From positions 6,752,001 through 6,816,000 of the forward strand of contig OZ245006.1 in assembly GCA_965223545.1 (NCBI GenBank): a stretch of DNA of 64,000 nucleotides. Direction: 5' to 3'. The notes beneath the pieces were generated by a model that did not search any database, was not told the DNA's origin, and saw only the letters and a program-made list of their open reading frames with translations. Positions 9,503 to 60,370 of this stretch are shown one piece after another. Source of the stretch: Planctomycetota bacterium. Lineage in GTDB: Bacteria; Planctomycetota; UBA1135; UBA2386. Position numbers and translations under genes: made by a program. The stretch's first letter is position 1. Every line of letters starts with the position of its first letter.

Positions 9503-9552
9503 GCTCGAGGGCGGCGCATCATAGGCAGGTATCGCCAAGCAGGGGGTTGCCG

Positions 9553-10701
9553 TCAGGGCGCGAGAGTGCGCATCGCCGGCAGCGTGAGCGTGGCGCTGCC
9601 GGTGGGCAGCAGCACCGCGGCCTGCAGGGCCAGCGGGGTCAGCGGCGCGTTCACCGGAATCGGAAACGCGCCCGTGAGGCTACCGCCGCCGCCGATGGTC
9701 CCGGCCTGCAGCACGGCCCACGGGGTGCCGACGAACCACGTGCCCAACGGCCCGGCCGCGATCGGTGCCGCGGGCAGCCCGGCGACCAAGACGCTGGCCG
9801 ACCCAGCGGGCGCGTGTACGGCCGTCGCCAGCTGACCCGCGACGACGCTGGCGTCGGTCCACGGCACCGTGGTCGCGATCCAGGTGACCGGTCCCTCGAC
9901 CAGACCGGCGCCGTTCACCGGCACCAGCGACAGGCCGAAGTCGGTGCGCACGGTGGTGAGCGAAGCGCTCGTGCTGGCCTGGCCGTCGACCGCCGGCGCG
10001 GGCAGCGGGCCGCCGGTGCCGGCGGCGATCGAGGCGCCGGGGCCTCCGGAGGCGGCGAGGGTGGCGTCGCGGATGGCGACGCCCGGCCCGGGGCCGACGG
10101 TCGCGTTCCCCGGGCCGCCGACCAGGACCGTCTCGGCGGCGGCGACGCGTCCTCGGAGCACGGTCATCGCCGGCGCGCCGACGGCGGTGGCGCGCAGGTC
10201 GCAGCGGTGCAGCACGACACCACTGCTCGCCGTGTGCAGGGCCTCGCCCGCGGTCGCGGTCGCCGTCACCGCCTGCAGCGACACGCGCCCACTCTGCACC
10301 AGTCGAATGCCACCGCCGAGGCGCAAGCTCTCGAGGTGGACCTGGCCGGTGCTGCCGCTGACCGATACCTGGGCCGGCGAGGTGAAGCCGCGCACCAGGG
10401 TCGGCCCGTCGACCAGATCGATGCGGATCACGTCGCCGGCACTGCCCACCGTCACGCCGGGAAAGGCCTCCACCGTCAGGTGCGTCAGCGCGATCGAGAA
10501 CGACGAGTAGGCGCCCGGCAGCACGGTGATCCGGTCGCCCGGCGCAGCGGCGGCGATCGCCGCGGGAATGTCGGTGAAGTTTCCGCCGCCGCCGGCGGCG
10601 ACGACCCAAGTCGTCTGTGCCGGGGCGCTGCTGACGGTCACGGCGGCGATGACGAGGCCGGCGGCAGCGGCCGGCGGGGCGAGGAGCGAAAGGGTCGGCA
10701 C
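9553..10701 (-). CDS. Exported protein: pectin-lyase-like beta-helix N-terminus plus shared C-terminal domain
   Basis: Signal peptide ending APAQ, FTDIPAAIAAAAPGDRITVLPGAY beta-helix cap motif. Start approximate (GTG 10701). Confidence 0.65.
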   Translation of the reverse strand: MPTLSLLAPPAAAAGLVIAAVTVSSAPAQTTWVVAAGGGGNFTDIPAAIAAAAPGDRITVLPGAYSSFSIALTHLTVEAFPGVTVGSAGDVIRIDLVDGPTLVRGFTSPAQVSVSGSTGQVHLESLRLGGGIRLVQSGRVSLQAVTATATAGEALHTASSGVVLHRCDLRATAVGAPAMTVLRGRVAAAETVLVGGPGNATVGPGPGVAIRDATLAASGGPGASIAAGTGGPLPAPAVDGQASTSASLTTVRTDFGLSLVPVNGAGLVEGPVTWIATTVPWTDASVVAGQLATAVHAPAGSASVLVAGLPAAPIAAGPLGTWFVGTPWAVLQAGTIGGGGSLTGAFPIPVNAPLTPLALQAAVLLPTGSATLTLPAMRTLAP

Positions 10702-10814
10702 CCATCCAAGATACGCTCGCGGTGCTGGAGTGGCTGGTTCCACGGTGTTGCCCTTTTCCCTGGCCCCTCTGGACGCGAGCCAACGTCCTGGCGGCGTGCG
10801 CTCCGATTCCAACC

Positions 10815-11348
10815 ATGTCCACGACGACCGGTGAGCTGCGAGCGGGCGGGCGGGCAGAGACCCGCGCCGGTTCCGCCGCCGGCCGCGATGCCTGGATCGC
10901 GCGCCAGAGCGACCTGCTGTGGCGCTACCTGCGGTATCTCGGTGCCAGCCGCGAGCTCGCCGAGGACGTGATGCAGGAAGTGCTGATCCGCGCGCTCGCG
11001 CATCACGGCACCGCGCGGCCGGGGTGGCTGCGTACCACCGCGCGCAACCTGCTGGTCGACCATTGGCGGCGCGAGGGCCGGGCACCGCTTTCGGTCGACG
11101 CCGCCGCGCTCGAGCGGGTTTGGTGTGCGCAGGACACCGACGCGCGCCGGGGCGCGCTGCGCGCCTGTCTCGATGGGCTGCCGGCGCGTTCGCGTCAGGT
11201 GCTCGAGCTGCGCTACGGCGATGGCCTTGGTTGGTCGGAGATCGGCGCGCGCATCGGTCTGCGCGCGCAGGGGGTCAAGAGCTTGTTGCAGCGGCTGCGC
11301 GTCGCTGTGCGCGGTTGCGTCGAACGGAGGTTGCGCGATGAAGAATGA
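10815..11348 (+). CDS. ECF RNA polymerase sigma factor (planctomycete/verrucomicrobial type)
   Basis: Region 2: LWRYLRYLG...AEDVMQEV, WLRTTARNL. Region 4: ALRACLDGLPARSRQVLELRYGDG..EIG...GVKSLLQR. Confidence 0.9.
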   Translation: MSTTTGELRAGGRAETRAGSAAGRDAWIARQSDLLWRYLRYLGASRELAEDVMQEVLIRALAHHGTARPGWLRTTARNLLVDHWRREGRAPLSVDAAALERVWCAQDTDARRGALRACLDGLPARSRQVLELRYGDGLGWSEIGARIGLRAQGVKSLLQRLRVAVRGCVERRLRDEE

Positions 11349-13008
11349 CGAGCAGCGGTTGAGCGCGGCTTGGCTGACGGCGGCGTTGGAGGCGGAGCTG
11401 GGCGCGGTACCCGACGTGCGCGCGGCGGTGTTGGCGGCGGCTCCAAGCGTGCCGCCGCGCGCGGGCCTTCGGCGGCGCGGATGGCGAGTCGCGACCGCGG
11501 CGCTGGCGGCGGCGACGACGGTGGCGATCTTGCTATGGCCTCCGGCCGGCGTGTCGACCACGCCCGCGGATCGCGAGGCCCAGGACCCGGCGCCGGTCGA
11601 GCGCGCGGTGACCGCGACCTCGGTCGACGCTCTGCGTGCCCTGCTGGCCGACCTGCGCGCCGTGCGGCTCGGCTACGAGCACGCCTACACGCGCCACGCT
11701 TCCCCGGCGGGCGTGGCGATGGAGATCAACGGCTGGATCGAGGTCCCCGGCGTGGTGGTCGAGGCACCGCTCCGCGCCCTCGAGCTGCTGGATCGGCCGC
11801 CGCGGCCGGGGCGTCACGGCGCCGTCAACTTCCGCCTCGCGCGGTGCGAGCTCTTGTTGTCCGGCGAACGCGTGCTGCGCGGTGGGTTCTGGTTTGGCGA
11901 GGGCGGCGGCGTGTTCGTGCCCGAGCTGGGCATGTGCGCGGTGAGCGAGGCATCGCAGCAGCGCGTCGCGGCATTGCTGCCGGACCTCGACGCGCTGGCC
12001 GCGGAGCGCTTTGCGTTGGTCGCGACTGTCGAGCAGCTGCGCGCAGTGCCGCGGTCGGTCGAGCACGTCGTCGCCTGCGGCCTCGGCGACGCCGACCTCG
12101 CCGGGTTCGCCGCGCTGCCGGGGCTGCGCCGGGTCGCGCTCGACGCCGACGGGCTCGGGCGCGCCGGCGTGCCGTTCGTGCGCGCCGCGCTCGGCGACGG
12201 CGCGGTGCGGGCGCTCGCCGGCTGGGGCGGGCTCGAGGCGGTCGAACTCGCCGGCGCACGGGTGTCGGCGGCGGCGCTGCGCGAGCTGTCGGCGCTGCCG
12301 CGCTTGACCTCGGTGATGCTGCGCGACTGCGCGCTCACCCTGCACGAGGCGCCGCCCGCGAAGGCGGAGGTCGTTTTGCGCGCCGAGCGGGTCGAGCTGC
12401 GCGGCGGCTCGGCCACCGGCCTCGAGACCGACGGGCTGGCGCGGATCGCCGCGCGACATCTCTCGATCACGGGTGGGGGTGGGGGAGGTGTGCTGGCGTT
12501 GCCGGAGGACGGCGAGCTGCCGGCTGGGCTCGAGCAGCTGGAGCTCGCCTTCGTCACGCTCGATCTGTCGGCGCTGCCGTCGTACGCCCAGCTGCGCCGC
12601 CTCGCGCTGCGCGGCTGCGGGCTGTCGTCGGAGACGCTGGTGGCGATTGCCGCGACCCGGCTCGAGCGGCTCGAGCTGTCGGGCTGCCGCGGTGTCGACG
12701 GCGCGGCGTTGCGGACGGCGCTGGCGCTGCCGTCGCTGCGCGCGGTCGCCTTGCGCGAGCAGAACGCAGGGCGCGGCACGGATGTCGACCTGGCCGTCGT
12801 GCTCGTCGAAGCCGCCGCCGGGATCGAGGAGCTCGATCTGACCGGCTCGACCTGTGATCGAGCAGTGCTCGACGTGTTGCGGCAGCGCACGGGGCTCAGG
12901 GTGCTGCGCTTGGGTGGCACCGGCTTGTCGGACCTGGATCTCGACCGGCTGCGGCGGCGGCTGCCGAGCACGCTCGTGCTGCCCGAACCGGCGTCGGGCG
13001 GGCGGTAG
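11338..13008 (+). CDS. Putative anti-sigma factor: single TM, extracytoplasmic leucine-rich repeats
   Basis: Overlaps the sigma stop codon. Short N-terminal domain, Arg cluster, TM (VATAALAAATTVAILLWP), then LxxLxLxxC-type repeats (LRRLALRGCGL, LERLELSGCRGV, IEELDLTGS, LRVLRLGGT). Confidence 0.75.
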   Translation: MKNDEQRLSAAWLTAALEAELGAVPDVRAAVLAAAPSVPPRAGLRRRGWRVATAALAAATTVAILLWPPAGVSTTPADREAQDPAPVERAVTATSVDALRALLADLRAVRLGYEHAYTRHASPAGVAMEINGWIEVPGVVVEAPLRALELLDRPPRPGRHGAVNFRLARCELLLSGERVLRGGFWFGEGGGVFVPELGMCAVSEASQQRVAALLPDLDALAAERFALVATVEQLRAVPRSVEHVVACGLGDADLAGFAALPGLRRVALDADGLGRAGVPFVRAALGDGAVRALAGWGGLEAVELAGARVSAAALRELSALPRLTSVMLRDCALTLHEAPPAKAEVVLRAERVELRGGSATGLETDGLARIAARHLSITGGGGGGVLALPEDGELPAGLEQLELAFVTLDLSALPSYAQLRRLALRGCGLSSETLVAIAATRLERLELSGCRGVDGAALRTALALPSLRAVALREQNAGRGTDVDLAVVLVEAAAGIEELDLTGSTCDRAVLDVLRQRTGLRVLRLGGTGLSDLDLDRLRRRLPSTLVLPEPASGGR

Positions 13009-13119
13009 AGACTTGCGGCGGACCGCGACGGCGGGCGGGCGGTCTGCCCCTGCCCGTTACCGCAGCGGTTTTCTCGAATACCCGGGTGCCGTCCCCGCGA
13101 GCTTGTTTGGCAGCAGACA

Positions 13120-13647
13120 GTGCAGTTTGTCCGCGACGCGTCCACGTCCAGTTTGGACTCCTTTGTTCGCCGCCACATGCCCGACGTTTGGCACTACCTC
13201 CGCCTCTGCGGCTGCGATGCCGAGACCGCCGACGACCTGACGCAGGAGGCGTTCTTGGTGGCGCTGCGCAAGGGCGTCACGCCGGAGCCCGAGCGCGGCG
13301 CACGGCGCTACCTGCGGCGGACGGCGCGCTTCGTGCTGCTGCAGCACCGCCGGCGGGTGGCGCGGGAGCGCTGGGAGCGCGGCTCCGAGGCGTGGCTGGA
13401 TGTGGTCGACGAGGTTTGGGAGGAACGGCAGGCGGCCGATCACCTCGACGGCTGGCTGGCGGCGCTGCGGCGCTGCCGCGCCAAGCTCACCGGCCGCCGC
13501 TCGCGCGCGGTGGCGCTGTTCTACGGTGAGCGGCGTTCGCGCGCCGAGGTCGCGGAGGCCCTTTCGATGACCGAGAACGGCGTCAAGACGCTGCTGCAGC
13601 GGGTGCGCGCCGATCTCCGCGCGTGTGTCGAGAGGATCCTGCGGTGA
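13120..13647 (+). CDS. ECF RNA polymerase sigma factor (second copy)
   Basis: VWHYLRLCGCDAETADDLTQEAF; ALRRCRAKL...EVAEALSMTENGVKTLLQRVR. Confidence 0.9.
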   Translation: MQFVRDASTSSLDSFVRRHMPDVWHYLRLCGCDAETADDLTQEAFLVALRKGVTPEPERGARRYLRRTARFVLLQHRRRVARERWERGSEAWLDVVDEVWEERQAADHLDGWLAALRRCRAKLTGRRSRAVALFYGERRSRAEVAEALSMTENGVKTLLQRVRADLRACVERILR

Positions 13648-15212
13648 CCGGGGGGCGGGAGACCGAACGGCAGCGGGTCGACGACCGTTGGCTCGACGTG
13701 GCCCTCGAGATGGTCGAAGGCCGTGGGCCGCGGCCGGGCCTCGCCGAAGACGTCGCGCGGCAGCTTCGCGCCGCGCCGGCGCTGCCCCGCCGCACGCGGC
13801 GTCGCTGGCCCTCGATCGCACTGGCTGCCGCCGCGGTGGTCGCGGTCGCCGGCCTGGGCTGGCTGGCGTCGGCGGGCGGATCGCCAGAGGTCGAGGTCGC
13901 ACGCGAGGTCGAGGTGGCGGTGGTGCGCTCGGCGGTCGAGGTCGCGGTGCTGCCCGAGACCACGCGCGCGGTGCGCGGTCTGGGGCTCGATGCGGCCGCC
14001 CTCGCGAGCCTGCGACGCCTGCGCTCGTTGGCTCGGCTCGAGCTGCTGCCGGCGGACGCGGATGAGGGCTACGGAGGCGAAGATCATGGAGCGGTGCCCG
14101 CACTTTCGGACCGGGGTTTCGCGACGGTCGCGACCCTTCGCGGGCTCCGCTCCGTTTCCATCGAACGGCTGCAGCTGTCACCGGCGGCGCTCGCCCGGCT
14201 GAGCGAGCTGCCGCGGTTGGACGCGTTGGCGCTCAAGGGTGTTCCGCTGAGCGACGGCCATTTCGACGCGGTCGCGCGGCTGGCGGGGCTGCGCACCTTG
14301 GTCCTCGAGGGCCCGGTCGAGGCCGGCGCCGCTGCGCACCGGCGGCTGGCGGCTCTGCCGCAGCTCGAAGACCTCGATCTGTCGGTGTCGTGGCATCGGC
14401 GCAACCCGCCGTCGGACGATCCCGCCGCGCGCGCCGCGTTCGCCCGGCAGCTGGCGGTCGTCGACGACGCTTTGCTCGAGGTGTTGGCCGGGATGCCGAG
14501 CCTGCGCCGGCTGGTGCTCCGCGGCCGGCCGGCGGTCACCGATCGCGGCCTCGCGCTGCTCGCCGCGCTGCCGCTCGAGGCGCTGGACCTGTCGGGCTGC
14601 AACGGCATCACCGACGCCGGCTTGGCGCAGCTGCCCAGCAGCCTGCGCAGCCTGTCGCTGGCGTCCTGCGCCGAGGTCGGCCGCTCGTTTCCCGAGCACT
14701 TGACCGGCTTGCGCTCGCTGGTCCTGTCGATCAATCCCAACCTCGATGACGCCCAGCTGGCGCGGATCACCGCGCTCCCCGAGCTGCGCGCGCTCGACCT
14801 GCGGGTGTGCAGCAACCTCACCGCCGAGGGCGCGCGCGCTCTGGCGGGGGCCGCCGAGCTCGAAGAGCTCTTCCTGTGCGGCTCGCCTTGGCTCGACGAC
14901 ACCGTGATGACCGCCCTGGCCCAGCTGCCGCGCCTGCGCGAGCTGGGCATGGCGGGTTTCGGCCAGAGCCAGCTGACCGGAGCCGGCGTCGCCGAGCTGG
15001 CGCGGCTGCCGCAGCTCGAAGTGCTGCACGTCTCCGGCATCCAGCCGCTGGCCGCGGCGGACGTGCGCGCCCTGGCCGGGCTGCCGTTGCGCTACCTCGA
15101 CGTCTCCGACAACCGCATCGCGTTCGACCGTGAGTCGCCGGACGTGGAGGCGCTGCGGGGGCTGTGGTCGGGGATCGAGCTGCGTGCCGATCGGGTTGCT
15201 GGCGGGCGCTGA
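13644..15212 (+). CDS. Putative anti-sigma factor: single TM, extracytoplasmic leucine-rich repeats
   Basis: GTGA overlap with the sigma gene. TM (WPSIALAAAAVVAVAGLGWLA), then many LRRs (LEALDLSGCNGITDAGL, LRALDLRVCSNLT, LRYLDVSDNRI). Confidence 0.8.
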   Translation: MTGGRETERQRVDDRWLDVALEMVEGRGPRPGLAEDVARQLRAAPALPRRTRRRWPSIALAAAAVVAVAGLGWLASAGGSPEVEVAREVEVAVVRSAVEVAVLPETTRAVRGLGLDAAALASLRRLRSLARLELLPADADEGYGGEDHGAVPALSDRGFATVATLRGLRSVSIERLQLSPAALARLSELPRLDALALKGVPLSDGHFDAVARLAGLRTLVLEGPVEAGAAAHRRLAALPQLEDLDLSVSWHRRNPPSDDPAARAAFARQLAVVDDALLEVLAGMPSLRRLVLRGRPAVTDRGLALLAALPLEALDLSGCNGITDAGLAQLPSSLRSLSLASCAEVGRSFPEHLTGLRSLVLSINPNLDDAQLARITALPELRALDLRVCSNLTAEGARALAGAAELEELFLCGSPWLDDTVMTALAQLPRLRELGMAGFGQSQLTGAGVAELARLPQLEVLHVSGIQPLAAADVRALAGLPLRYLDVSDNRIAFDRESPDVEALRGLWSGIELRADRVAGGR

Positions 15213-15290
15213 CAGCGCCTCCCGGTGATTCGGCGCCCCGGTTCTCACGGCGGTGGCTTCGAGGCTCCCGCGCCCGCATCATCGCGGCCG

Positions 15291-16358
15291 ATGAACGAAC
15301 CTCGCGCTCTTGTTCGATCGCTGGCCGGCTGTGGCGCCCTCGCTTGGCTGACGGCTTGCGCGACTCCCCTCGAGCTCGAGCCGCAGCCATCGGGCACCGA
15401 CCAAAGCCTGCGCGGCGTCTGCGCGGTCAACGCCGACGTGGTCTGGGCGAGCGGCGCGACCGGCACCGTGTTGCGCACCACCGACGGTGGTGCGACCTGG
15501 CAGCACCGCGCCATCCCCGGGGCTGAGCAGCTCGACTTTCGCGATGTGCACGCCCTCGACGCGCAGCGCGCGTGGGTGATGGTGGCGGGTGCGCCCGCGC
15601 GCATCTACGCAACCGCGGACGGCGGCGCGACGTGGCAGGTCCAGGCCGAGCATCCGAGCCCGAGCGCGTTCTACGACAGCATCGCCTTCTGGGAGCCGCA
15701 GAACGGCCTGCTGTTCGGCGATCCGGTGGAAGGCGCACTGACGGTGTGGACCACGACCGACGGCGGCGCCAGCTGGCAGCCCGCGCGCGCTCCGGAGCTG
15801 CCGGCGCCGCTGGCGGGTGAGGCCGGCTTCGCGGCCAGCGGAACCTGCGCGTGCGTGTGGGGCGACACACACGCTTGGATCGGCACCGGCGGGGGTGCGC
15901 GCGCTCGGGTGTTGCGCAGCGAAGACCGCGGCCGCAGCTGGCAGGCGGCCGACACGCCGCTGGCCGCCGGCACATCGTCGGCGGGGATCTTCTCGCTCGC
16001 GTTTCGCGATGCGCAGCACGGAGTCGCGGTCGGTGGCGACTACCAACAGCCCGCGCGGGCGACCGGCAACGCCGCGGTCAGCGCCGACGGTGGCGTCACC
16101 TGGAACGCCGCCCAGGTGTCGCCGCGCGGCTATCGCTCGGCGGTCGCCTTCGTGCCGGGCAGCGCGCGGCCGCTCTGCGTCGCGGTCGGTCCGACCGGCG
16201 TCGACTTCTCGGTCGACGGTGGGGCGCAGTGGTTGCCGTTCAGCGACGCCGGCTACCACGCGGTAGCGGTCGCGCCGGACGGCGCCGCGCTGTGGTGCGT
16301 CGGCGCCGGCGGGCGCATCGCCCGGCTGGCGGAGCCGGCGCGGCTGGGCGCGCCGTAG
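15291..16358 (+). CDS. BNR/Asp-box beta-propeller lipoprotein (YCF48-like)
   Basis: Lipobox WLTAC. Repeated Asp-boxes TTDGGATW, TADGGATW, TTDGGASW, SEDRGRSW, SADGGVTW, SVDGGAQW. Confidence 0.85.
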   Translation: MNEPRALVRSLAGCGALAWLTACATPLELEPQPSGTDQSLRGVCAVNADVVWASGATGTVLRTTDGGATWQHRAIPGAEQLDFRDVHALDAQRAWVMVAGAPARIYATADGGATWQVQAEHPSPSAFYDSIAFWEPQNGLLFGDPVEGALTVWTTTDGGASWQPARAPELPAPLAGEAGFAASGTCACVWGDTHAWIGTGGGARARVLRSEDRGRSWQAADTPLAAGTSSAGIFSLAFRDAQHGVAVGGDYQQPARATGNAAVSADGGVTWNAAQVSPRGYRSAVAFVPGSARPLCVAVGPTGVDFSVDGGAQWLPFSDAGYHAVAVAPDGAALWCVGAGGRIARLAEPARLGAP

Positions 16359-16391
16359 GGTTCCGCCGGCTCGGGCGCGGCGGCTTCTCGA

Positions 16392-17696
16392 TCAGAAGCC
16401 GATGGTCCAGTCGAGGCCGTCGCTGAACACCAGGCCCGACGCCGTCATCGGGTTGACCACATCGACGACGACCGCCTGCAGGAACAGCTGGGCGCCGACC
16501 AAGTTGGTGTTGTTCGGAATCGGGAACGAGAAGCTGGTCGTCGGCGGGCTGGTGACGAAGTTGACGTCCAGCAGCGGCGGGCTCACCAGCGCGGTGGCGC
16601 CGAGGAACGGCAACGCGAGCGGCGTGGTGCCGATCACCAGCAGGCCTGGCTCGGCGCCCGACGCGGCGTAGCTGAGGTCGAAGGCGCCGACGTCGCCGAT
16701 CGAGGGATCGGTGACCGGCACCAGGTTGGCGGTGCCGAACGCGGGGTGCGGCGGGTTGGTGCCGTAGATCGACGAAGCGCCCGCCGTGCCGATGCGCAGG
16801 TTGTCGATCAGGCCGAAGCTGAGGGCCGCGTTGTCGGAGATCGACGAGAAGATGTCCATGTAGCCGACGGTCACTGAACCGTCGCTGGCAAACGGTGCGC
16901 CGATGCCGGCGTCGAGCGCGGCGATCGCCAGTCCGTCGACGGACCAGGTCACCAGCGGTGCTCCGCCGGTGCCGCCGTCCACGTCGATCACGATCTCGAC
17001 CTCGTGCCATTCGAAGCCGAACGAGCCGGGCTGGCTGATGCCGGTCTGCTGCGGGAACCCGCCGGCCGCGGCGGCACCCTGCACCGGCAGCGCGCCGACG
17101 TCGATGCTGCCGAATTGCGCGTAGTACGGGTCGCTGGCGTTGTGCGCGCCACCACCGGCACTGGAGCTGCCGGCGAAGAACTGGCCGCTCTCGGCGAACT
17201 GCTCGCTGCCGTCCTTGTAGCCGCGGTAGTCGCGCGACGAGCCGCCCTCACCGGTCGCGGCAAACCAGGCGCCGGTGCCGGAGCCGCCGATGTTGGGGGT
17301 GCTGCCGTCACCGCCCGCGCCGCAGGTGATGAACTCGGTCGAGCCGGTGCCCCCGCCCGGGAACGGGCCGTTGGCGTTGACCCAAGCGTCGAAGCGGATG
17401 ACGCGGTCGCCCGTGTAGGTCTGCACCGTGTGCAGCGTCACCGCGTTGGCCGCGCCCGCGGTGATGTTGGCCTCGAACTTGACACCCAGCGTCGTGCCGC
17501 CCGTGGTGTTCGGCGCGGGTGGAATGCCCATCGAGCTGTAGTCGAACAGGAACGTCGCGAACGCGTCACCGGTCGAGGCGACGATGTAGCTCGCCGAGGT
17601 GTCGGTGTCGAAGTCGTCCGACACGATCTGGGCGTTGGCGACGGAGGCGCACGCGGCGGTGAGCGCGGCGGCGTGGAGCAGGCGGTTGTGATCCAT
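16392..17696 (-). CDS. Exported protein, jelly-roll-like N-domain plus shared C-terminal domain
   Basis: Signal peptide MDHNRLLHAAALTAACASVANA|Q. Gly/Ser/Thr-rich beta domain ending FGLIDNLRI, then an ~110-aa CTD. Confidence 0.75.
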   Translation of the reverse strand: MDHNRLLHAAALTAACASVANAQIVSDDFDTDTSASYIVASTGDAFATFLFDYSSMGIPPAPNTTGGTTLGVKFEANITAGAANAVTLHTVQTYTGDRVIRFDAWVNANGPFPGGGTGSTEFITCGAGGDGSTPNIGGSGTGAWFAATGEGGSSRDYRGYKDGSEQFAESGQFFAGSSSAGGGAHNASDPYYAQFGSIDVGALPVQGAAAAGGFPQQTGISQPGSFGFEWHEVEIVIDVDGGTGGAPLVTWSVDGLAIAALDAGIGAPFASDGSVTVGYMDIFSSISDNAALSFGLIDNLRIGTAGASSIYGTNPPHPAFGTANLVPVTDPSIGDVGAFDLSYAASGAEPGLLVIGTTPLALPFLGATALVSPPLLDVNFVTSPPTTSFSFPIPNNTNLVGAQLFLQAVVVDVVNPMTASGLVFSDGLDWTIGF

Positions 17697-17975
17697 GGTC
17701 TGTGATGCGGGGGAGACTCGGTTGCGGAGATGATGGGCGCACTCGGACTTCGGCCTGGTCCTCGGCCGAGAGCGCGACCGCGAGGCTACGATAGAGCGGT
17801 GCGGCGCGCTTGGGTATGGGGGGTGCGGGCGCGCCGCGCGACCTCGAGCCCGATCGCGGCGCACGCTCCAACCCTCCTTGCGACCGATGGTTGAGAACGT
17901 CCCGCCGATGTGTCGGTGGGCGGCGCACGCCCGTTGTCCGCCACCTCTTCACCGCGCGGTATGGTCGGCGCCAGC

Positions 17976-20330
17976 ATGCTCTGCTCCCTTCCGCTCTCAT
18001 CACTCGCGATCCGCCCGGTGGCCGCGATCGCTGCACTCACCGCGGCCGCCACGACATCGCCGCCGGCCGCCGCCCAGGATCCGGCCACCGCCACCGATCC
18101 CGAGGTCCGGCTGCAGCGCTACGCCCGCCACCTGGAGAAAGTCGAGAACTCGCCGCACGGCGCGCTGCGCTGGCAGTTCCTCGGGCCGACCAACATCAGC
18201 GGCCGGGTGACCGACGTCGCGGTGCCGGCGCCGCGTGGCGAGAGCTACGCGATGTATGTCGCCGGTGCCTCCGGCGGAGTGTGGAAGACCGACAACGAGG
18301 GCACGACCTGGACGCCGGTGTTCGAGCACGCGCCGTCGACGTCGATCGGCGACGTCACGGTGGCGCCGTCCGATCACGACGTGGTCTGGATCGGCACCGG
18401 CGAAGCCAACATCTTCCGCAGCTCGATGGCCGGTTGTGGCGTCTACAAGTCCATCGATGCCGGGGCGTCGTGGCAGCACATGGGACTCGCGGCGACCCAC
18501 ACCGTGGCGCGCATCGTGGTCCACCCGGCCGATCCCGACGTCGTCTACGTCGCCGCTTCCGGCCACGAATGGACCGACAACCGCGAGCGCGGCGTGTTCA
18601 AGAGCACCGACGGCGGCCAGACCTGGGAGCACTCGCTCTACATCGACGACCGCACCGGGGCCATCGATCTGGTGCTCGATCCGTCGGACCCCGAGACCCT
18701 CTACGCCGCCACCTGGGAGCGCGTGCGCAAGCGCTGGAACGACCCGCGCAACGAGGATGGCTACGACGGCAGCGGCATCTACAAGAGCACCGACGGCGGC
18801 TTGGTGTGGACGCCGTGCAACACCGGGTTGCCCGGTGCGCGGTGGCGCGGCCGGATCGGCATCGACCTGTGCGCCGCGCAGCCGCGCACTCTGTACGCGT
18901 TCGTCGACAGCTACGAGCTGGTTGACGAGGAGCCGGAGGGCACCGATTCGTACGGGAGGCCGATGCGGCGGCGCATCGAGGGGGCGCAGATCTACCGCAG
19001 CGACGACGGCGCGGAGTCCTGGCAGCGGGTGAGCCCGGCCGACGAGGCGATGCGCCGCCACTCGGGCACGTATGGTTGGGTGTTCGGTCAGATCCGCGTC
19101 GATCCCACCGACCCCGATGTGGTCTACACGATGGGGCTCGGGCTGCACGTGTCGCGCGATGGCGGCCGGACCTACCGGCGGTTGCGCGGCATGCACGGCG
19201 ACCACCATGCGCTGTGGATCGATCCCCGCAACCCCCGCTACCTGGTCAATGGCAACGACGGCGGGGCGGTGGTGTCCTACGACGGCGGCGAGACCTGGAA
19301 GTCGTTCACCGAGGGGCTGCCGATGGTGCAGTTCTTCAACGTCGGCGTCGACATGGCGGAGCCGTTCCGCGTCTACGGCTCGATCCAGGACCACGGCAGC
19401 TTCCGCGCGCCGGTCGAGCTGTCGAAGGGGCGCGACGCCATCCCCGCGCAGCGCTTCGAGCGCGCGCCGGGCGGCGAGGGCTCGAGCCACGCGATCGACC
19501 CCACGGACCCGGACACCGTCTACGCGGCCGGCTTCTACGGCCGGATCCACCGCACCGACATGCGCAGCGGCGACCGGCGCAACCTGGTGCCGCGGGCCGC
19601 GGAGGGCGAGGCCCCGCTGCGCGGTCAGTGGGTGGCGCCGTTCGTCCTGTCGCCGCACAACCCGCGGATCCTCTACCACGGGATGAACGCGCTGTTCCGC
19701 TCCTGGGATCGCGGCGAGGTGTGGGAGCAGATCAGCGGTGATCTCAGCTACGGAGACGCGGAGACCCGCGGCGACATCCCGTACCACACGATCTCGACCA
19801 TCGCCGAGTCGCCGTTCGCGTTTGGCCGGCTGTACGTCGGCACCGACGACGGCCGTGCGTGGACCACGCCGGACGGTGGTGGCGAATGGCAGGAGATCAC
19901 CGCCGGGCTGGCCTCCGATCGGTGGATCTCGCGGGTCGAGGCCTCGCGCCACGCCGAGGGCCGCTTGTTCCTGGCGCAGAACGGCAAGCGGCACGACGAC
20001 TTCCTCCCGTATCTGTGGGTGTCCGAGGACCACGGCGCGCACTGGCGCAGCCTGGCCGACGACATCCCGCTCGGGCCGATCAACGTGGTGCGCGAGGATC
20101 CGGTGCGCGCCGACGTGCTCTACGTCGGCACCGACCTGGGCGTCTACTCGAGCTGCGATCGCGGCCTCACTTGGCAGGCGTTGGCTGCTGGAATGCCGTC
20201 GACGTTCGTGCACGATTTGGTCGTGCACGAACGAGACCACCTGTTGGTCGCGGCCACGCACGGCCGCGGCATGTTCGTTCTGGATGTGCGTCCGCTGCAC
20301 GAAGGCGGCGAAGACGAGGCGCCCAAGTGA
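17976..20330 (+). CDS. Sortilin/VPS10-like BNR-repeat 'glycosyl hydrolase'
   Basis: WQFLGPTNISGRVTD, GGVWKT, many SxDGGxTW boxes, HGDHHALWIDP, ATHGRG. Start approximate. Confidence 0.88.
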   Translation: MLCSLPLSSLAIRPVAAIAALTAAATTSPPAAAQDPATATDPEVRLQRYARHLEKVENSPHGALRWQFLGPTNISGRVTDVAVPAPRGESYAMYVAGASGGVWKTDNEGTTWTPVFEHAPSTSIGDVTVAPSDHDVVWIGTGEANIFRSSMAGCGVYKSIDAGASWQHMGLAATHTVARIVVHPADPDVVYVAASGHEWTDNRERGVFKSTDGGQTWEHSLYIDDRTGAIDLVLDPSDPETLYAATWERVRKRWNDPRNEDGYDGSGIYKSTDGGLVWTPCNTGLPGARWRGRIGIDLCAAQPRTLYAFVDSYELVDEEPEGTDSYGRPMRRRIEGAQIYRSDDGAESWQRVSPADEAMRRHSGTYGWVFGQIRVDPTDPDVVYTMGLGLHVSRDGGRTYRRLRGMHGDHHALWIDPRNPRYLVNGNDGGAVVSYDGGETWKSFTEGLPMVQFFNVGVDMAEPFRVYGSIQDHGSFRAPVELSKGRDAIPAQRFERAPGGEGSSHAIDPTDPDTVYAAGFYGRIHRTDMRSGDRRNLVPRAAEGEAPLRGQWVAPFVLSPHNPRILYHGMNALFRSWDRGEVWEQISGDLSYGDAETRGDIPYHTISTIAESPFAFGRLYVGTDDGRAWTTPDGGGEWQEITAGLASDRWISRVEASRHAEGRLFLAQNGKRHDDFLPYLWVSEDHGAHWRSLADDIPLGPINVVREDPVRADVLYVGTDLGVYSSCDRGLTWQALAAGMPSTFVHDLVVHERDHLLVAATHGRGMFVLDVRPLHEGGEDEAPK

Positions 20331-23953: not shown

Positions 23954-23964
23954 AGGACATCGAC

Positions 23965-25425: not shown

Positions 25426-25440
25426 CGGCGGCGGGCCACC

Positions 25441-28020
25441 GTGTCGGCCCGGTCGCCAGCGGCTATTCTTGGAGTGGTCCCACACGCCAACGAGAGCACC
25501 GCAACCTTGCTTGACCCAACCCCGCGCCGGCGTCCGGCGCTGCCCCTTTGGGCGTTCTCGGCCGTCTTCGCGATCGCCGCTCCAGCAACCGGCCAGACCC
25601 CCAACCCGCCGCTGGTCCCGTTCACCAGCGTGAACTTCCCCAACGGCTTGGAGTTCGGCTGGTCGCTCGGGATCTCCTGCGGCGACTATGACGCCGACGG
25701 CTTCCCTGACCTCTACAACCACCTGACCGGCGAGTTGTGGCGCAATCTGGGTGGCCAGGACTGGGAAATCGCCAGCAACCTGTTGTCCGGGCCAGTGGCC
25801 TTTCGCTACGGCTCGTCGTTCGGGGACTACGACCGCGACGGCCTGCCCGACATCGCCACCGAGCCGCGCAAGGGCTACTGCTTCCAGCTGTTCCACAACG
25901 ACGGCGGCGGCCAGTTCACCGACATCGCCGAGGGGACGGCGTCGTTCGCGGTCACGCCGTGCGACGAGTTCGCCGAGACCGCGGCGTGGGGCGACGTCGA
26001 CTTCGACAACGACCTCGATCTGTTCCTGCCGACTTATCCCGCCTTCGTCGGCGGCACGCAGCCCAACTACTTTTGGCGCAACAACGGTCCGGTCGGCGTC
26101 GGCGGCGCCTACGTGTTCGAGGAGATGGCGGCGGCGGTCGGGCTACTCGTGCCGGTCGGCAACAACCGGCCCGAGGGCGCGCAGCTGTGCGACTACGACT
26201 TCGACGGCGACCTGGACCTCTACAGCAACGGCAGCCTGTACCAAAACCAGTCGACCCTGGGGCAGCCGGCCTTCGCCGCGATGGCGGAGGCGGCGTCGGG
26301 CATCGGCCTCAGCTCGGTGCTCGACGAGGGAGCGCTGTTCTTCGACCACGACCTCGACGGTGACTTCGACATCCTGGCGGCCTACGTGGGGGTCGGCGTG
26401 GTGATCTGGGAGAACCGCGGCGATGGCACGTTCTTCCAGCTCGATCCGTCGGCGATCGCCAGTCCGACGGCCGGCGTCGACTTCGGCGTCTCCGCCGAAG
26501 ACTGGGACAACGACGGCGACCTCGACTTCAACTCGCAGTTCGCCTTCCGCCGCAACATGCTGGTCGAGACCGGGCAGCGCCAGTACGTCGTCAGTCTGGG
26601 GCAGCTGGACCCCGCGCACTTGATCCGGCCGACGGTGGCGTGGGCGGACTTCGATCTGGACGGTGATCTCGACGCGGCGATCGGCAACTTCTGGCCGGAG
26701 AACGACGGCACCGGCGCGCTGTACGACAACGCCCTCTACGACGCCAGCACGCCGGCGGCGCAGCGCCGGCATCTGCGCGTGCGGCTGATGCGCGACGAGA
26801 GCTTTGCGCGCGGCAGTGAGACCGAGTTCGGTGCCCGCGCCGAAGTGCGCGTCGCCGGGGAGCAGGGCGTGCGACGCACCAAGTTCGTCGCCAGTGGCCA
26901 CGGCTACCTCAACCAGAACGAGTACACCCTGCACTTCGGCATCCCGTCGGCGGGTGGCGCGACCGTGCTCGACGTGGTCGCCGAGTTTCCAAACGACCCG
27001 GCGGTGGGTGGGTGGCGGGTCGACCGGCACGTCAATCCGCTGCTCGGCGGGCTCGTGTTGGAGGCGCTGGGCGACCGCGAGGTCGTCGTCTTCCGCAGTG
27101 GTCGGGCGGTCGTCGACGGCTGTGACGTCACCCCGAACCCGGTGGAGTCGCCGCTGACCGCGAGCACGCCGGCGCTGGTGCTGCCGAGCGCGACGGCCGG
27201 CCTGGTTCCGCCGGTGACCGCGGCGCGGGACACGTTCGTCGGCATCGACATCACGACCGGCGCGCAGGCGCTCCGCGTGACCGAGCTCGTCGTCGACGGC
27301 GTGGTGACCCAGGGCGGCGTCGCCAACGTGCTCTGGTGGGACACGACCAACGCGAGCACGCCGGTCTTCGTCGACGCGCGCGTCGAGGTCACCGAGCCGC
27401 GCAACGACCGCAGCTACTTGGTCGAGGACCGGATCCTGGCGCCGCAGCGGAGCTATCGAGTTGTCGTCGCCGTCGACTCGACGCGGGCGACGCCGATCGC
27501 GGCGCCGGTCACGACGGGCGGGCTGACGACCAACGGTGGCTTGTTGTTTCGCGACCGCGAGCCGCTGAGCGGCGCGCGCGTGCGCAACGCGCGGACGGAT
27601 CCTGGCGCGGCCTATGTCTCCGTGCGCTTCCGGCCGGCGCTCTTGGGCGTGCCCATCGACCTCGGCAACGCGGTGCCGAGCGCGGCGGGCGGCAGCGCGG
27701 TCCTGCAGATGACGGGTACCATCGCCGGCGGGCAAACGGTGACCCTCGCAGCCTCCGGTCTGCCGGCGAATGGCCAGGCGTTCCTGGCGATCGGCCAGGG
27801 CGTCGAGTGTCTGCCCATCGGCACCGGCACGGTGCTGGTGCCAGCGGCAGCGGCGGTGGCCATGGTGCCGGTCTCGGCCAGCGGCACCGTCTCGCTTTCC
27901 GCGACGTGGCCCGCGGGGTTGCCCACCGGCGTCGAGCTGGCGTCGCAGATCTGGTACGACGACAGCGCGGCTGGCGGCACTCTGGCGACGAGCAACGTCG
28001 TGCTGGTGCGCAGCCCCTGA
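25441..28020 (+). CDS. FG-GAP/ASPIC-UnbV (CRTAC1-like) exported protein with shared C-terminal domain
   Basis: Repeated DxDxDGxxD motifs (GDYDADGFPD, GDYDRDGLPD, DFDNDLD, DWDNDGDLD, ADFDLDGDLD), ASPIC-like GHGYLNQNEYTLHFG. Start uncertain. Confidence 0.82.
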   Translation: MSARSPAAILGVVPHANESTATLLDPTPRRRPALPLWAFSAVFAIAAPATGQTPNPPLVPFTSVNFPNGLEFGWSLGISCGDYDADGFPDLYNHLTGELWRNLGGQDWEIASNLLSGPVAFRYGSSFGDYDRDGLPDIATEPRKGYCFQLFHNDGGGQFTDIAEGTASFAVTPCDEFAETAAWGDVDFDNDLDLFLPTYPAFVGGTQPNYFWRNNGPVGVGGAYVFEEMAAAVGLLVPVGNNRPEGAQLCDYDFDGDLDLYSNGSLYQNQSTLGQPAFAAMAEAASGIGLSSVLDEGALFFDHDLDGDFDILAAYVGVGVVIWENRGDGTFFQLDPSAIASPTAGVDFGVSAEDWDNDGDLDFNSQFAFRRNMLVETGQRQYVVSLGQLDPAHLIRPTVAWADFDLDGDLDAAIGNFWPENDGTGALYDNALYDASTPAAQRRHLRVRLMRDESFARGSETEFGARAEVRVAGEQGVRRTKFVASGHGYLNQNEYTLHFGIPSAGGATVLDVVAEFPNDPAVGGWRVDRHVNPLLGGLVLEALGDREVVVFRSGRAVVDGCDVTPNPVESPLTASTPALVLPSATAGLVPPVTAARDTFVGIDITTGAQALRVTELVVDGVVTQGGVANVLWWDTTNASTPVFVDARVEVTEPRNDRSYLVEDRILAPQRSYRVVVAVDSTRATPIAAPVTTGGLTTNGGLLFRDREPLSGARVRNARTDPGAAYVSVRFRPALLGVPIDLGNAVPSAAGGSAVLQMTGTIAGGQTVTLAASGLPANGQAFLAIGQGVECLPIGTGTVLVPAAAAVAMVPVSASGTVSLSATWPAGLPTGVELASQIWYDDSAAGGTLATSNVVLVRSP

Positions 28021-28030
28021 GCCCGGACGC

Positions 28031-32498: not shown

Positions 32499-32520
32499 GG
32501 CTGTGGTTCGAGGGTTGGAA

Positions 32521-34499: not shown

Positions 34500-34552
34500 C
34501 TTCGCCCGACGCCGGGGTCGTGGGGAGTCCGGATCGCTGCGCGCAACCCGTT

Positions 34553-37798: not shown

Positions 37799-37869
37799 AC
37801 GACCAGCGATGCAGAGGACATCGGCAGTCGGCTGCCGCCCGCCGCAGGCGGGGTCTCGATCCGAGACGC

Positions 37870-39330: not shown

Positions 39331-39344
39331 GGTCTCGTGGCTCC

Positions 39345-40634: not shown

Positions 40635-41040
40635 GCTGACCTCCCCGCGTGCGGCGTCCGGCCGTGCGCCGGCTGGCCGCGTTGCCGATCGAGCGGCGCA
40701 GCCGCTCGAGTTCGCGCGCGTCGATGTCGCCTTCCTCCAGCAGGTGGCTCATCAGTGCTGCGGTGCTGCCACCGAACAGCTGGTCGACGAGGTCGCCGAT
40801 CATCGAGCGGCGCAGCTCGCGCCGCTCGACACAGGCGCGAAACACAAAGCGCCGGGCCTCGGTGCGGTGGGTGACCAGTCCCTTGTCCTCCAGCCGCCGC
40901 AAGATGGTCGAGACGGTGGTGGGGGCGACCGAGCGGCGGCTCGCCAGCGCGGCGTGGATGTCGACCACGGTCGCCTCGCCGAGCCGCCAAAGCTGTTCGA
41001 GGATGCGGTGCTCTAGCTTGCCGACTTTGAGTTGTGTCAT
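40624..41040 (-). CDS. BlaI/MecI/CopY family transcriptional repressor
   Basis: LEHRILEQLWRLGEATV, TTVSTILRRLEDKGLV, LFGGSTAALMSHLL. Overlaps the M56 gene. Confidence 0.93.
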   Translation of the reverse strand: MTQLKVGKLEHRILEQLWRLGEATVVDIHAALASRRSVAPTTVSTILRRLEDKGLVTHRTEARRFVFRACVERRELRRSMIGDLVDQLFGGSTAALMSHLLEEGDIDARELERLRRSIGNAASRRTAGRRTRGGQRVP

Positions 41041-41062
41041 CGCGGTGACCTCGAGCTGAACT

Positions 41063-41104
41063 ATGACACTCGTAGTACTGCGGCGGTAGTACTACGCCCG
41101 TAGG
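41063..41104. promoter_or_regulatory. Three abutting imperfect palindromes, consensus ACTAC-N4-GTAGT: putative BlaI operator array
   Basis: ATGAC-ACTC-GTAGT (41063-76), ACTGC-GGCG-GTAGT (41077-90), ACTAC-GCCC-GTAGG (41091-104), 22 bp upstream of the repressor start. Resembles TACA-NN-TGTA BlaI/MecI/CopY boxes. Confidence 0.75.
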
Positions 41105-41151
41105 AGTTTGCCCGGGCAGCTTTCCGCGTCTGGCCGCGAACCACCGTCGCC

Positions 41152-43014
41152 TCAGCGGCTGCCGTCGGTCGCGGTGGCCGGCCCCGGCGCCGGTGGGAGG
41201 GCAGCATCCGGCTCTTCGGCTGGCTTGCCGACCGTGTCGATCGGCCGCTGCACACCGGATTCCGCGTCGGGCAGCCGCACGACGAAGACCGATCCGCCGC
41301 CGTCGCGGTCCTCGCACCAGGCCGACCCGCCGTGCATGACGACGATCTCGCGCGCGATGGCGAGGCCCAGGCCGGTGCCTTGCGGCTTGTCGGTGAGCAC
41401 GTCGCCCTCCTGGTGGAACATGGCGAAGACCGCTTCTTTGGACTCGACCCCGTGGATGCCCGGGCCGCGGTCGGCAACGCGCAGCTCGAGGTGCTCGCCG
41501 GCCGTCACCTCGACGTCGATCGCCGCCCCCGGCGGCGAGAACTTCCAGGCGTTCGACAGGAGGTGGCCGATCAGCTGCAACAGCCGCGCGCGGTCGCCGA
41601 ACAGCGGCGCGGCGGTCGCCTCGACGCGCAGGCGGAGGTTCTTCTCGGCGCACGTCGGTCGGATGGCGTCGACGGCCTCGTGCGTGAGGTCGCCGAGGTC
41701 GACCCGCTGCAGCCGCCACTCGCCCTTGCCCGTGCTCAGGGTGACGAAGTCCAGCACGTTCTCGAACAGGCTGGACAGGCGAGCGCACTCGCCGTCGATG
41801 ATCGCCAAGAACTCCGCCAGCTCGGCCGGTGAGGCGTCCTCGCCGTACGAGAGCAAGATCTCGGTGTAGGCGCGGATGCTGGTCATCGGCGTGCGCAGCT
41901 CGTGACCGATCGACGCCAAGAACCGGTCCTTGGCGCGGTTGGCGAGCTCGGCTTGCAGCGCGGTGGTGCGCACTTCGCGCACCAGCTGGCCGATGTGCGT
42001 CGCCATCTCGTTGAATGCTCGCCCGAGCTGGCCGACCTCGTCATCGCCGACGCGGTCCACGGCGACGGTCCAGTCGCCGCGCGAGAACGCCTCGGTCGCG
42101 ACGGTCAACTCTTCCAGCGGAGTGCAAAGGCGGCGCGTCAGGTAGCGACTGAGCAGGGAGCCGAGCAACACCACCAGGACTCCGCCGCCGAGCATCCAAC
42201 GCCAGCCGCTCTGCCGCAGGGCGGCGAGCGCACCCATGTCGGGCACCAGCAGGATGTGGCCGCCAGTGGCGTGCAGCGGCACCGCCAACGCCGGCCGGGG
42301 GCCGCTTGCGCTCGGCAGCTGAATCGTCGGCTGGTTGGGGTCCGCGCTCTGCACTGCGCCGACGATCGCGGTCACCGCGTCGCCGTCGCGGGCCGCGCCG
42401 GACGAGGCGTAGAGTCGTTGTCGCCAGAGCAGCAGCACCTCGCTGGCGGTGACGCCGGCGATCTCGATCGCCGCGTCGTCGTCGAGGGGGGTCGCGGTCG
42501 ACAGCCAGCCGACCACGTCGGCGCCCTGCACGACGGGCACGGTGACGGCGAGGTGCAGAGTGCCGTCGATCTCCCACAAGGCGTCGACGGTCTCGCCGGC
42601 AAGGGCTTGTCGGATGCCGGGCAGACCGAGATCGCGCGCGCGGAAACGAAGGCTGGTCGGGACGCCGGCGATCCGCGCCGAGCCCAGTCCACCGATCAGC
42701 AGAGCCGGCGCTGCGGAGGTCCGTTGGATCGCCGCCAGCATGTCTTGCAGTGCGTCGTCGGCCGCGTGCGCGTCGGCGAGCAGGGCGGGCAGACCGGGGA
42801 ACGAGGCCAGCGCCTGACCGCGCTCGTGCGCCGCGCGCCGGTGGATCGCCATCCACTTGGCAGTGGTGCGCCGCGCGTGCTCGAGCTCGTGCTCTGCCTG
42901 GCGCCCGGCGTAGTCGTCGAGCAGCTGGGAAAGCACGAGCAGCGTGGCGGCAACGAAGCCGACTACCAGGCCCGTCATGCCGACGAGGAGCTTGCTGCCG
43001 AGGGTCAGTCGCAT
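41152..43014 (-). CDS. Membrane sensor histidine kinase (Cache-like sensor, HAMP, HisKA, HATPase)
   Basis: Two TMs, HAMP DEVGQLGRAFNEM, H-box GHELRTP, N-box LLSNAWKF, DRGPGI, GTGLGL. Confidence 0.93.
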   Translation of the reverse strand: MRLTLGSKLLVGMTGLVVGFVAATLLVLSQLLDDYAGRQAEHELEHARRTTAKWMAIHRRAAHERGQALASFPGLPALLADAHAADDALQDMLAAIQRTSAAPALLIGGLGSARIAGVPTSLRFRARDLGLPGIRQALAGETVDALWEIDGTLHLAVTVPVVQGADVVGWLSTATPLDDDAAIEIAGVTASEVLLLWRQRLYASSGAARDGDAVTAIVGAVQSADPNQPTIQLPSASGPRPALAVPLHATGGHILLVPDMGALAALRQSGWRWMLGGGVLVVLLGSLLSRYLTRRLCTPLEELTVATEAFSRGDWTVAVDRVGDDEVGQLGRAFNEMATHIGQLVREVRTTALQAELANRAKDRFLASIGHELRTPMTSIRAYTEILLSYGEDASPAELAEFLAIIDGECARLSSLFENVLDFVTLSTGKGEWRLQRVDLGDLTHEAVDAIRPTCAEKNLRLRVEATAAPLFGDRARLLQLIGHLLSNAWKFSPPGAAIDVEVTAGEHLELRVADRGPGIHGVESKEAVFAMFHQEGDVLTDKPQGTGLGLAIAREIVVMHGGSAWCEDRDGGGSVFVVRLPDAESGVQRPIDTVGKPAEEPDAALPPAPGPATATDGSR

Positions 43015-43254
43015 GCGCGAGCGGCGGGCGCCCGCGGCCCGCGATCGTACGTGATGTCCTTCCTATCGGGTGTCCGGCGTCGATGAGTGAAATCCACATG
43101 CCCTGAACGGATGCGGGGGCACTCTCCCCAGCGAGGGCAAGACGTGGCGAGTCGCTCGCACGGCCGGTCGCGTCGCAGACCTCGACTCCGAGGCCGGAGC
43201 GCCGGAATTCGCGACAGTGCTCGACTGGTTCGGTCCGCATCGCGCTTCGGGGCC

Positions 43255-43292
43255 CCAAGTCGCTACGATGGTGGCGCTTCCCAGCGACTTGG
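43255..43292. promoter_or_regulatory. 10-bp perfect inverted repeat enclosing a TACGAT -10-like hexamer
   Basis: CCAAGTCGCT (43255-64) / AGCGACTTGG (43283-92), 18-nt spacer, upstream of the CDS at 43320. Confidence 0.4.
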
Positions 43293-43319
43293 ACTCCGGT
43301 CCCCAACCCGAGGAGAGCA

Positions 43320-44165
43320 ATGATGCGCTACGCCTTCCCGATGCTCGGCATCGCCGTGATGGCCTGCCTGGCGACCGACGCCCTCGCCCAACGCGTGGTG
43401 ATCGCATTCAACGATCTGTCGGTGAGAACCACCGTGACGACCCAGTACCCGACGGCGACCTTCTCCTCGCCGCCTGGTTTCATCAACATCACCGCGGACG
43501 ACCACAATCTGGGCACCTCGCGGCCCAACTACCTCTGTACGGCCAACAGCCAGGGTGCTCTCAACTGCACTGCCGACACGTACGTCGACTTCGCCACGCC
43601 GGTGAACGACCTGAGTCTCTACGCTGCCGGTGACAACGCCGCCGGTCGGGCGGCCACCGTGCGCGTCTTCCGAGACGGGATTCTGGCCGCGAATCTGCCG
43701 ATTCTCGTCGACGGGACGATGGCAACCCCAGATCTGGTCAACCTGACGGGTTTCGGCAACGTGACCCGGATCGAGCTCACCGGCATCGTCGATCCCGGCG
43801 GCTTGGCCTGGGACGACTTCTCGTTCGTGCCCGGCCCGCCAAGCCTCGCTGCGCGCGAGAGAATCGAGCCGGTTCATTCGCTGACCATCGATCTGCACAA
43901 TGCCCCCGCGTCGAGTCCGGTCTTGCTGCTGGCGGGCAGCGAACGCGGCATGACCCGCGGCGTCGGACAGCTCGGCACGATTCGCCTCGGGGTGACCCCG
44001 ACGCTCCTTCTGCCGCTGGGCACCACGGATCAGCGGGGTCGGCTGACGATCGCCGCGGGGACGTTGCTTCCCGGCGCCACGGCACTGCAGGCGATCGTGG
44101 TGGACCGCAGCCGTGACCGTTTGTGGGCGACACCGGCGGTTCGAGCCACAAGGAGTGATGGGTGA
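43320..44165 (+). CDS. Exported protein, small beta-sandwich domain plus shared C-terminal domain
   Basis: GAGGAG RBS, signal peptide ending ALA|Q, domain ending WDDFSFVPGP, then CTD. Confidence 0.75.
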   Translation: MMRYAFPMLGIAVMACLATDALAQRVVIAFNDLSVRTTVTTQYPTATFSSPPGFINITADDHNLGTSRPNYLCTANSQGALNCTADTYVDFATPVNDLSLYAAGDNAAGRAATVRVFRDGILAANLPILVDGTMATPDLVNLTGFGNVTRIELTGIVDPGGLAWDDFSFVPGPPSLAARERIEPVHSLTIDLHNAPASSPVLLLAGSERGMTRGVGQLGTIRLGVTPTLLLPLGTTDQRGRLTIAAGTLLPGATALQAIVVDRSRDRLWATPAVRATRSDG

Positions 44166-57610: not shown

Positions 57611-60148
<2,538 letters not shown>

Positions 60149-60370
60149 GGTTCACTCCGGTACCTGCCGAGGCCTGTTCAGTCACCCTGGTGTAGATCGG
60201 CTGGATCCTCGCGATGATTTACCCGGATCCGAGGGGCTGGCAACTCGAGCTTCCCGCGAGATCGCGCCGCCATCGGCGCTCCGGGGCCACTTGCCGGGGG
60301 TGACCATCGGCCTTTGCAACGCGGATCTCAACACCTACTCGCCGGTCCGCGCGGCGCCCAGGGCCGGGGC

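Follow-up and report, generated by a model that had tools for sequence, protein, structure and literature searches.

An Ig-like domain carried once per chain by hundreds of exported proteins in a Planctomycetota genome: a possible envelope-docking module

The 64,000-nt stretch of DNA analysed here (the window) comes from a Planctomycetota genome of 8.1 Mb and 70% GC (contig OZ245006.1; G000 below) and encodes four predicted exported proteins, named here by coordinate as 9553, 16392, 25474 and 43320, that carry different passengers and end in the same domain of about 115 aa (range ~105-125). This is a real, large and uncatalogued domain family, for which neither Pfam nor NCBIfam has a model. 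With slightly better than even confidence, we read this single-copy immunoglobulin (Ig)-like domain as a retained, non-covalent docking module that would hold hundreds of exported proteins on the cell envelope. The basis for this reading is the modularity of the domain, its presence as one copy per chain, its terminal bias, the lack of a membrane helix and its exchange with known surface tags.

A preliminary description of the window had proposed the shared domain. Independent gene calling recovered its four coding sequences (CDSs) with the same ends and three identical starts, and the C-terminal motifs it quoted are present in all four translations. The start of 9553..10701 is less certain because its N-terminus lacks a basic n-region. 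Plus-strand readings of 9553-10701 and 16392-17696 were rejected as shadow frames, the true genes lying on the minus strand. Pairwise BLAST among the four tails gave no match at E<0.01, so their likeness is at the profile level. A profile built after removal of the four tails and their 104 BLAST neighbours (the leave-out profile) scored all four at E values between 3e-17 and 2.4e-5, confirming that they are one domain. Jackhmmer searches from three of the tails grew to 182-327 open reading frames, and the 43320 tail alone retrieved only itself; hhalign gave this last tail a probability of only 26% against the family (E 7e-4). Reversed-sequence decoys produced 0 matches, and an internal-window control produced 7 in 3134, 6 of them known members.

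Across the source genome, 373 of 6109 called proteins contain the domain (E<1e-3), one copy each, and the union with a more sensitive C-terminal search comes to 440 proteins, about 7% of the proteome. Most of the 373 copies (331) end no more than 20 aa from the C-terminus; 25 are followed by an extension of 31-43 residues, 8 are internal and 9 lie directly after the signal peptide. Contrary to what had been expected, the domain is not always C-terminal: 42 of the 373 copies end at least 31 residues before the C-terminus. At least 10 stand-alone proteins consist of signal peptide and domain only, one such member in the source genome lying at G000 C1:2071763-2072191. The passengers are diverse (341 fall into 112 clusters) and include kelch, ELWxxDGT, FG-GAP, beta-helix, peptidase, sulfatase, di-heme and choice-of-anchor V and X types, the last two being found alongside the domain in 2 of 50 members scanned. 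Most domain genes (310 of 440) stand alone, and no machinery gene recurs among the neighbours of the 440.

By a home-made heuristic rule, a signal peptide ending AxA↓Q was called in 207 of 361 members, against 602 of 4820 background proteins; 35 further calls were weaker and 117 members had none, 58 of which were rescued by another start. The domain is mostly linked to a signal peptide. Lipoboxes are depleted (2 of 361 members), internal membrane helices are found in 2% of members versus 14% of the background, and a terminal helix-like segment or basic cluster in 0 of 440. Genome-wide, a predicted signal peptide with Gln right after it was counted in 809 proteins, of which 242 carry the domain. 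The pattern resembles the pyroglutamate Q-rule of the Bacteroidota.

The 25 copies with the extension belong to a family of G000 C1 genes encoding ~360 aa (for example L002:16719-17795), where the domain is predicted to lie inside a jelly-roll domain resembling lectins or carbohydrate-binding modules (CBMs). In the structural model (predicted local distance difference test score, pLDDT, 93.4), jelly-roll matches span residues 1-344 and Ig-like matches 175-303; Foldseek on this 344-aa model gave TM-scores of about 0.15 and was uninformative. The extension of this family was also sought before the domain in terminal-type paralogues, with no significant result. Three members have a small gene of 83-90 aa directly upstream (C1:3670169, 6839628 and 3809789). 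At L111:4142-7195, L112:5490-8584 and L113:4980-8110, alpha/beta-hydrolases with an N-terminal copy of the domain are each followed by a related exported protein of 211-219 aa that has no Pfam match.

In profile numbering, the conserved columns among the 373 copies are G21, G76, P85, G92, Q98 (94%) and S/T113 (90%). The proposed motif of an invariant Q, often D, and then S/T is recognisable in the family, D being present in 51%. Overall identity is only ~18% per column. Two cysteines tend to occur together (both in 171 members, neither in 118, one in 84; odds ratio 11.7, paralogues not being independent), which suggests a disulfide and an oxidising compartment. The domain is hydrophobic, with a grand average of hydropathy of +0.51 compared to -0.08 for its passengers (n=336).

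The suspected Ig-like fold is borne out as a prediction: the AlphaFold2 model of the 25474 copy is all-beta (pLDDT 90.9), with Ig-like matches up to Z 8.4. Structure searches returned generic Ig, MG, CBM56 and neocarzinostatin folds at Z 7-8.4. A PorU chain appeared among generic rows at Z 6.7 only, and the C-terminal domain (CTD) structures of the T9SS (type IX secretion system) did not appear in the top rows when the domain was searched on its own, though the two may be distantly related. Because of the conserved Q and S/T, an ester-bond adhesin with a Thr-Gln cross-link was considered (Foldseek TM 0.4-0.5) and rejected, given that the family has no conserved His column and the adhesin chains are absent from the top VIA rows. 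At E 0.05, 0 of 80 members matched any Pfam family; the NCBIfam scan gave one match, judged to be chance, and the PDB sequence search one cytochrome bd match (E 0.002), judged compositional. A known CBM or Ig family, which would have spoken against the proposal, was thus not found by profile in Pfam, NCBIfam or PDB sequences. The Atlas neighbours of the domain are unnamed Planctomycetota clusters.

The main functional evidence for a surface-targeting role comes from homologous passengers, which elsewhere end in known surface tags instead of the domain; as judged from these sequences, the exchange supports such a role. PEP-CTERM was proposed as a sorting signal (PMC1569441), and for MYXO-CTERM a role in anchoring proteins at the cell surface has been shown (PMC11980579). 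Of 299 matches to the 16392 passenger, 120 were listed, the protein itself among them. The domain closes 22 of these, and 82 have a tail that is PEP-CTERM-like by its pattern, PF07589 being recorded for 25; the other 16 are fragments or carry different tails, six of which look dockerin-like by eye. The switch point is constant, the last passenger strand being followed by either the PEP motif or the domain. Five homologues were found for the 43320 passenger: one with the domain, one with a PEP-CTERM-like tail, two with a WGxxK tail and one with a possible divergent copy of the domain, which was not counted. The PEP-CTERM-like tail, below the model cut-off, lies at the junction that the preliminary description had marked in 43320 (DDFSF-VPGP) as the place of a PEP-CTERM. 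Homologous passengers with PEP-CTERM tails, which that description proposed to look for, were found for 16392 and, in the weaker form of a PEP-CTERM-like tail, for 43320. Of the 98 homologues of the 25474 passenger, 59 end in the domain; a single one, from Phycisphaerae, has a dockerin instead, FlgD-Ig closes two, and three have MYXO-CTERM-like tails, of which one passes the TIGR03901 cut-off. A further 12 carry an unnamed two-Cys tail, and the remainder have no tail or are fragments. Besides the known tags, these passengers bear three other tails in other organisms: the WGxxK tail (P0008, P0010), the two-Cys tail (P0292, P0314, P0322 and others) and a tail ending FFR-hydrophobic (P0035, P0055); the six tested matched no NCBIfam tail model.

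The domain is restricted by lineage, as had been predicted. In a set of 301 Planctomycetota genomes, 60 match and 241 do not; the family is expanded in 55 (G000 and 54 others), and five genomes have a single copy only. The 54 belong to 16 families, with 9-14 of 14 scored candidates positive, and in the eight positive families with printed tallies all scored genomes are positive. Single intact copies (L101-L105; G324) are seen in genomes otherwise lacking the family, where transfer or bin contamination would both fit. Among 50 named genomes reached via ClpC loci, one Planctomycetota metagenome-assembled genome has 11 copies and one from the Acidobacteriota has one; apart from the latter, the domain was not found in the titled genomes of Phycisphaerae, Scalindua, Gemmata, Pirellulales or other phyla among those 50. 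A global library yielded 36,425 cluster representatives (50% identity) at E<=1e-3; in the best 150, at least one of them from G000, the domain ends within 10 residues of the terminus in 148 and is single-copy in 149. No description of the domain was found in the literature, subscription journals being thinly covered, and it goes unmentioned in the available parts of 10.1101/817700, 10.64898/2026.10.26.761892, PMC11032199 and 10.1101/2024.05.28.596244. The 70% GC and a MamK-family actin hint weakly that G000 is close to 'Saltatorellus', a clade of shape-shifting bacteria with strains in culture. MamK-like actin was discarded as a clade marker, being found in 27 of 40 carriers versus 9 of 40 others and so not diagnostic. 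One MamK-family actin gene above the NCBIfam cut-off (L109:4990-6063) adjoins a locus (6860-18901) with two TPR-type secretins and ExbB/ExbD genes.

Under the docking reading, a carrier protein would be exported by Sec and then fold in the periplasm, with an optional disulfide probably linking a Cys of the linker to one of the hairpin. The folded protein might next pass through the type II secretion system (T2SS), a less secure step. The conserved Pro/Gly loops and the Q...S/T-N motif form a candidate binding site for one shared envelope partner, which may be an outer-membrane lipid, a glycan or a scaffold protein, and the domain is proposed to stay on the mature protein rather than be cut off. 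The N-terminal, stand-alone and inserted copies are more easily reconciled with docking by a domain that is retained than with a signal that is cleaved. If the domain is inserted in the jelly-roll passenger as predicted, a free C-terminus is not required and excision would break the passenger. The analogy to sorting and anchoring tails originally drawn for the four window proteins thus survives in the modularity, the many copies per genome and the interchangeability with known tails; for a cleaved signal and a strictly terminal position the analysis gave no support.

Dedicated machinery was searched for in carriers and none was found; the unrecognised export route suggested for the window, like a cleaved signal of T9SS or PEP-CTERM type, gained no support. 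PorV was found in 0 of 55 carriers, with a working positive control; SprA_N and Por_Secre_tail gave 0 matches in G000, but their controls were silent. Exosortase was not found in G000, which is 91% complete, and here the control worked. Mutual exclusion with exosortase was considered and not seen: 20 of the 40 carriers tested have exosortase, as do 13 of the 40 non-carriers, and the two are uncorrelated. Six secretins are encoded in the source genome, which has a gspD-E-F-G-H-I-J operon among them. A short secretin without N0, whose gene adjoins a GspK-like gene and one for a small exported protein, gave a whole N-region match in 36 of 40 carriers (14 of which were in the training alignment) and a match of similar strength in 2 of 40 comparison genomes, 14 more having weaker relatives; in two carriers with good assemblies (G119, G224) no match was seen. 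As a partner of the domain it is a lead only. Its conserved locus (L106:7056-18174, G000 C1:1170056-1181174; relatives L140-L153) lies away from the main gsp operon; besides the GspK-like gene and one or two short secretins without N0, it encodes an exported protein of 135 aa and a large sensor of the sigma-54 type that contains CBM9.

Several points weigh against the docking reading. No binding partner or dedicated gene was found among the neighbours of the 440 domain genes or with machinery profiles in carriers, and GspD, present in 40 of 40 carrier genomes tested, also occurs in 33 of 40 comparison genomes, so a T2SS route is available without being specific. The matches of the modelled fold are generic (best Z 8.4) and point to no function, and the hydrophobicity may merely reflect a second core beneath the hairpin. 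The signal peptide counts come from our heuristic rule and not from SignalP. About 16 homologues of the 25474 passenger have no tail at all (by eye), so the tail is not obligatory in that family. Finally, the available evidence does not directly separate the outer surface from the periplasm.

If a retained anchor that needs no sortase is what the domain represents, diderm bacteria would have a novel means of surface display, and the domain might serve as a display tag. In practical terms, proteins with the domain are probably the surface proteome of a large branch of the Planctomycetota that is mostly uncultured, and a single profile would hint at the location of hundreds of hypothetical proteins in each genome. 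A fuller scenario, which we put forward as tentative and would sooner doubt than assert, is that this branch displays about 7% of its proteins by sortase-free anchoring, in which a position-independent Ig-like domain, delivery by a type II-like secretin (possibly of the short secretin/GspK-like locus) and one shared envelope partner replace PEP-CTERM, dockerin and T9SS tails.

The strongest competitor to docking, which we nonetheless consider unlikely, is that a machine in the outer membrane (the T2SS or the short secretin) reads the domain as an export signal, in the manner of the T9SS CTD, and that the domain is perhaps removed afterwards. An 89% C-terminal, single-copy, Ig-like domain of about the size given for the T9SS CTD in PMC4804311 is what such a signal might look like; exchange with FlgD-Ig tails and the skew of the short secretin toward carriers point the same way. 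Against it stand the N-terminal, stand-alone and inserted copies, and cutting out an inserted copy would split its passenger; PorV was not found in any of the 55 carriers, and any clade-specific gene would co-occur as the short secretin does, which besides was not found in G119 and G224 and has weaker relatives outside. Less probable again is a mixed protein coat, S-layer-like or fibrous, in which the domain binds to itself and shows hundreds of passengers. One copy per chain, the stand-alone versions, the high hydrophobicity and the share of the proteome would suit a coat, but members so divergent are hard to reconcile with one lattice, and codon bias gave no sign of a dominant subunit (10 of 434 in the top 5%, a weak and uninformative test). 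At a similarly low, marginally lower level we place a plain accessory module, Ig-like or ligand-binding (of CBM or neocarzinostatin type), spread by shuffling and without a targeting role. The generic fold matches, the variable position and the tailless homologues are consistent with it. Spacer Ig domains usually repeat in tandem, whereas here one copy is the rule in 373 of 373 proteins and in nearly all of the best 150 from the global library; moreover, the domain replaces unrelated anchors on the same passengers, and the predicted activities of these passengers are unrelated. That the likeness merely reflects composition, the tails being rich in Ala, Gly, Pro and Leu in a high-GC genome, as the missing BLAST matches and the low hhalign probability for the 43320 tail might suggest, is ruled out for practical purposes by the leave-out and decoy tests, the near-invariant Q, P and G columns, the confident fold and the lack of a match in most of the phylum.

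Among the four window proteins, the only Pfam matches are those in 25474..28020 (Table 1), the other three having none; scans of the four proteins with NCBIfam and of the window with Rfam gave no match. The region 57611-62088 on the minus strand holds ClpC with McsB-like and McsA-like genes upstream, as judged from N-termini only, an ordinary arrangement. The ClpC of this genome has its best matches in Planctomycetota.

Table 1. Coding sequences in the window that carry the domain, and their domain copies (E values from the leave-out profile)
Feature	Coordinates	Strand	Description
CDS 1	9553..10701	-	382 aa; atypical signal peptide (N-terminus hydrophobic, start uncertain); no Pfam or NCBIfam match in the passenger; terminal domain
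Domain copy 1 (divergent)	9556..9879	-	residues ~275-382; E 2.4e-5
CDS 2	16392..17696	-	434 aa; signal peptide ending ANA↓Q; most passenger homologues with PEP-CTERM
Domain copy 2	16395..16736	-	residues ~321-434; E 3e-17
CDS 3	25474..28020	+	~848 aa (start 25441 in the preliminary description; database record 837 aa); passenger of FG-GAP repeats and ASPIC/UnbV
Domain copy 3	27691..28017	+	residues ~740-848; E 1.6e-10; modelled all-beta Ig-like sandwich, pLDDT 90.9
CDS 4	43320..44165	+	281 aa; signal peptide ending ALA↓Q; small passenger
Domain copy 4 (divergent)	43833..44162	+	residues ~172-281; E 2.3e-7

Set beside known systems, the domain would seem to work like a surface anchor or sorting tail, yet it falls outside the families of T9SS, PEP-CTERM, MYXO-CTERM and dockerin. 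The T9SS CTD of type A (PF18962/TIGR04183; the RgpB CTD of PMC4804311) is likewise a C-terminal Ig-like beta-sandwich on many unrelated Sec-exported proteins of one lineage, with similar passengers (FG-GAP/ASPIC, ELWxxDGT, choice-of-anchor). The present domain is longer, has an extra hairpin and an optional Cys pair, is matched by T9SS CTD models, of type A or B, in 0 of 80 members, and also occurs N-terminally and inserted, whereas that paper places the T9SS signal within the last 22 residues and has the CTD removed by cleavage. PEP-CTERM/exosortase (TIGR02595, PF07589) and MYXO-CTERM/myxosortase (TIGR03901) share with it the position, the passengers, the signal peptides and a lineage-specific expansion to many copies per genome; these tails and GlyGly-CTERM are built of a motif, a transmembrane helix and a basic cluster, in contrast to a folded soluble domain. 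The neocarzinostatin apoprotein (PF00960; PDB 1nco) is a beta-sandwich of the same size that aligns over its full length (Z 7.5, rmsd 3.4, 95 residues, 18% identity), but this Z is tied with unrelated Ig folds, no member matches PF00960 and the genes lack a chromophore cluster context. From type I dockerin (PF00404; Phycisphaerae and other lineages) the present domain differs in being all-beta, without EF-hand repeats or a PF00404 match, and no cohesin-like partner was identified for it; dockerin expansions (12 or more) occurred in 4 of 40 non-carriers and in none of 40 carriers, numbers too small to build on. Like the present domain, dockerin is a retained single terminal module that is swapped onto the same passengers, and it works at either end of a protein.

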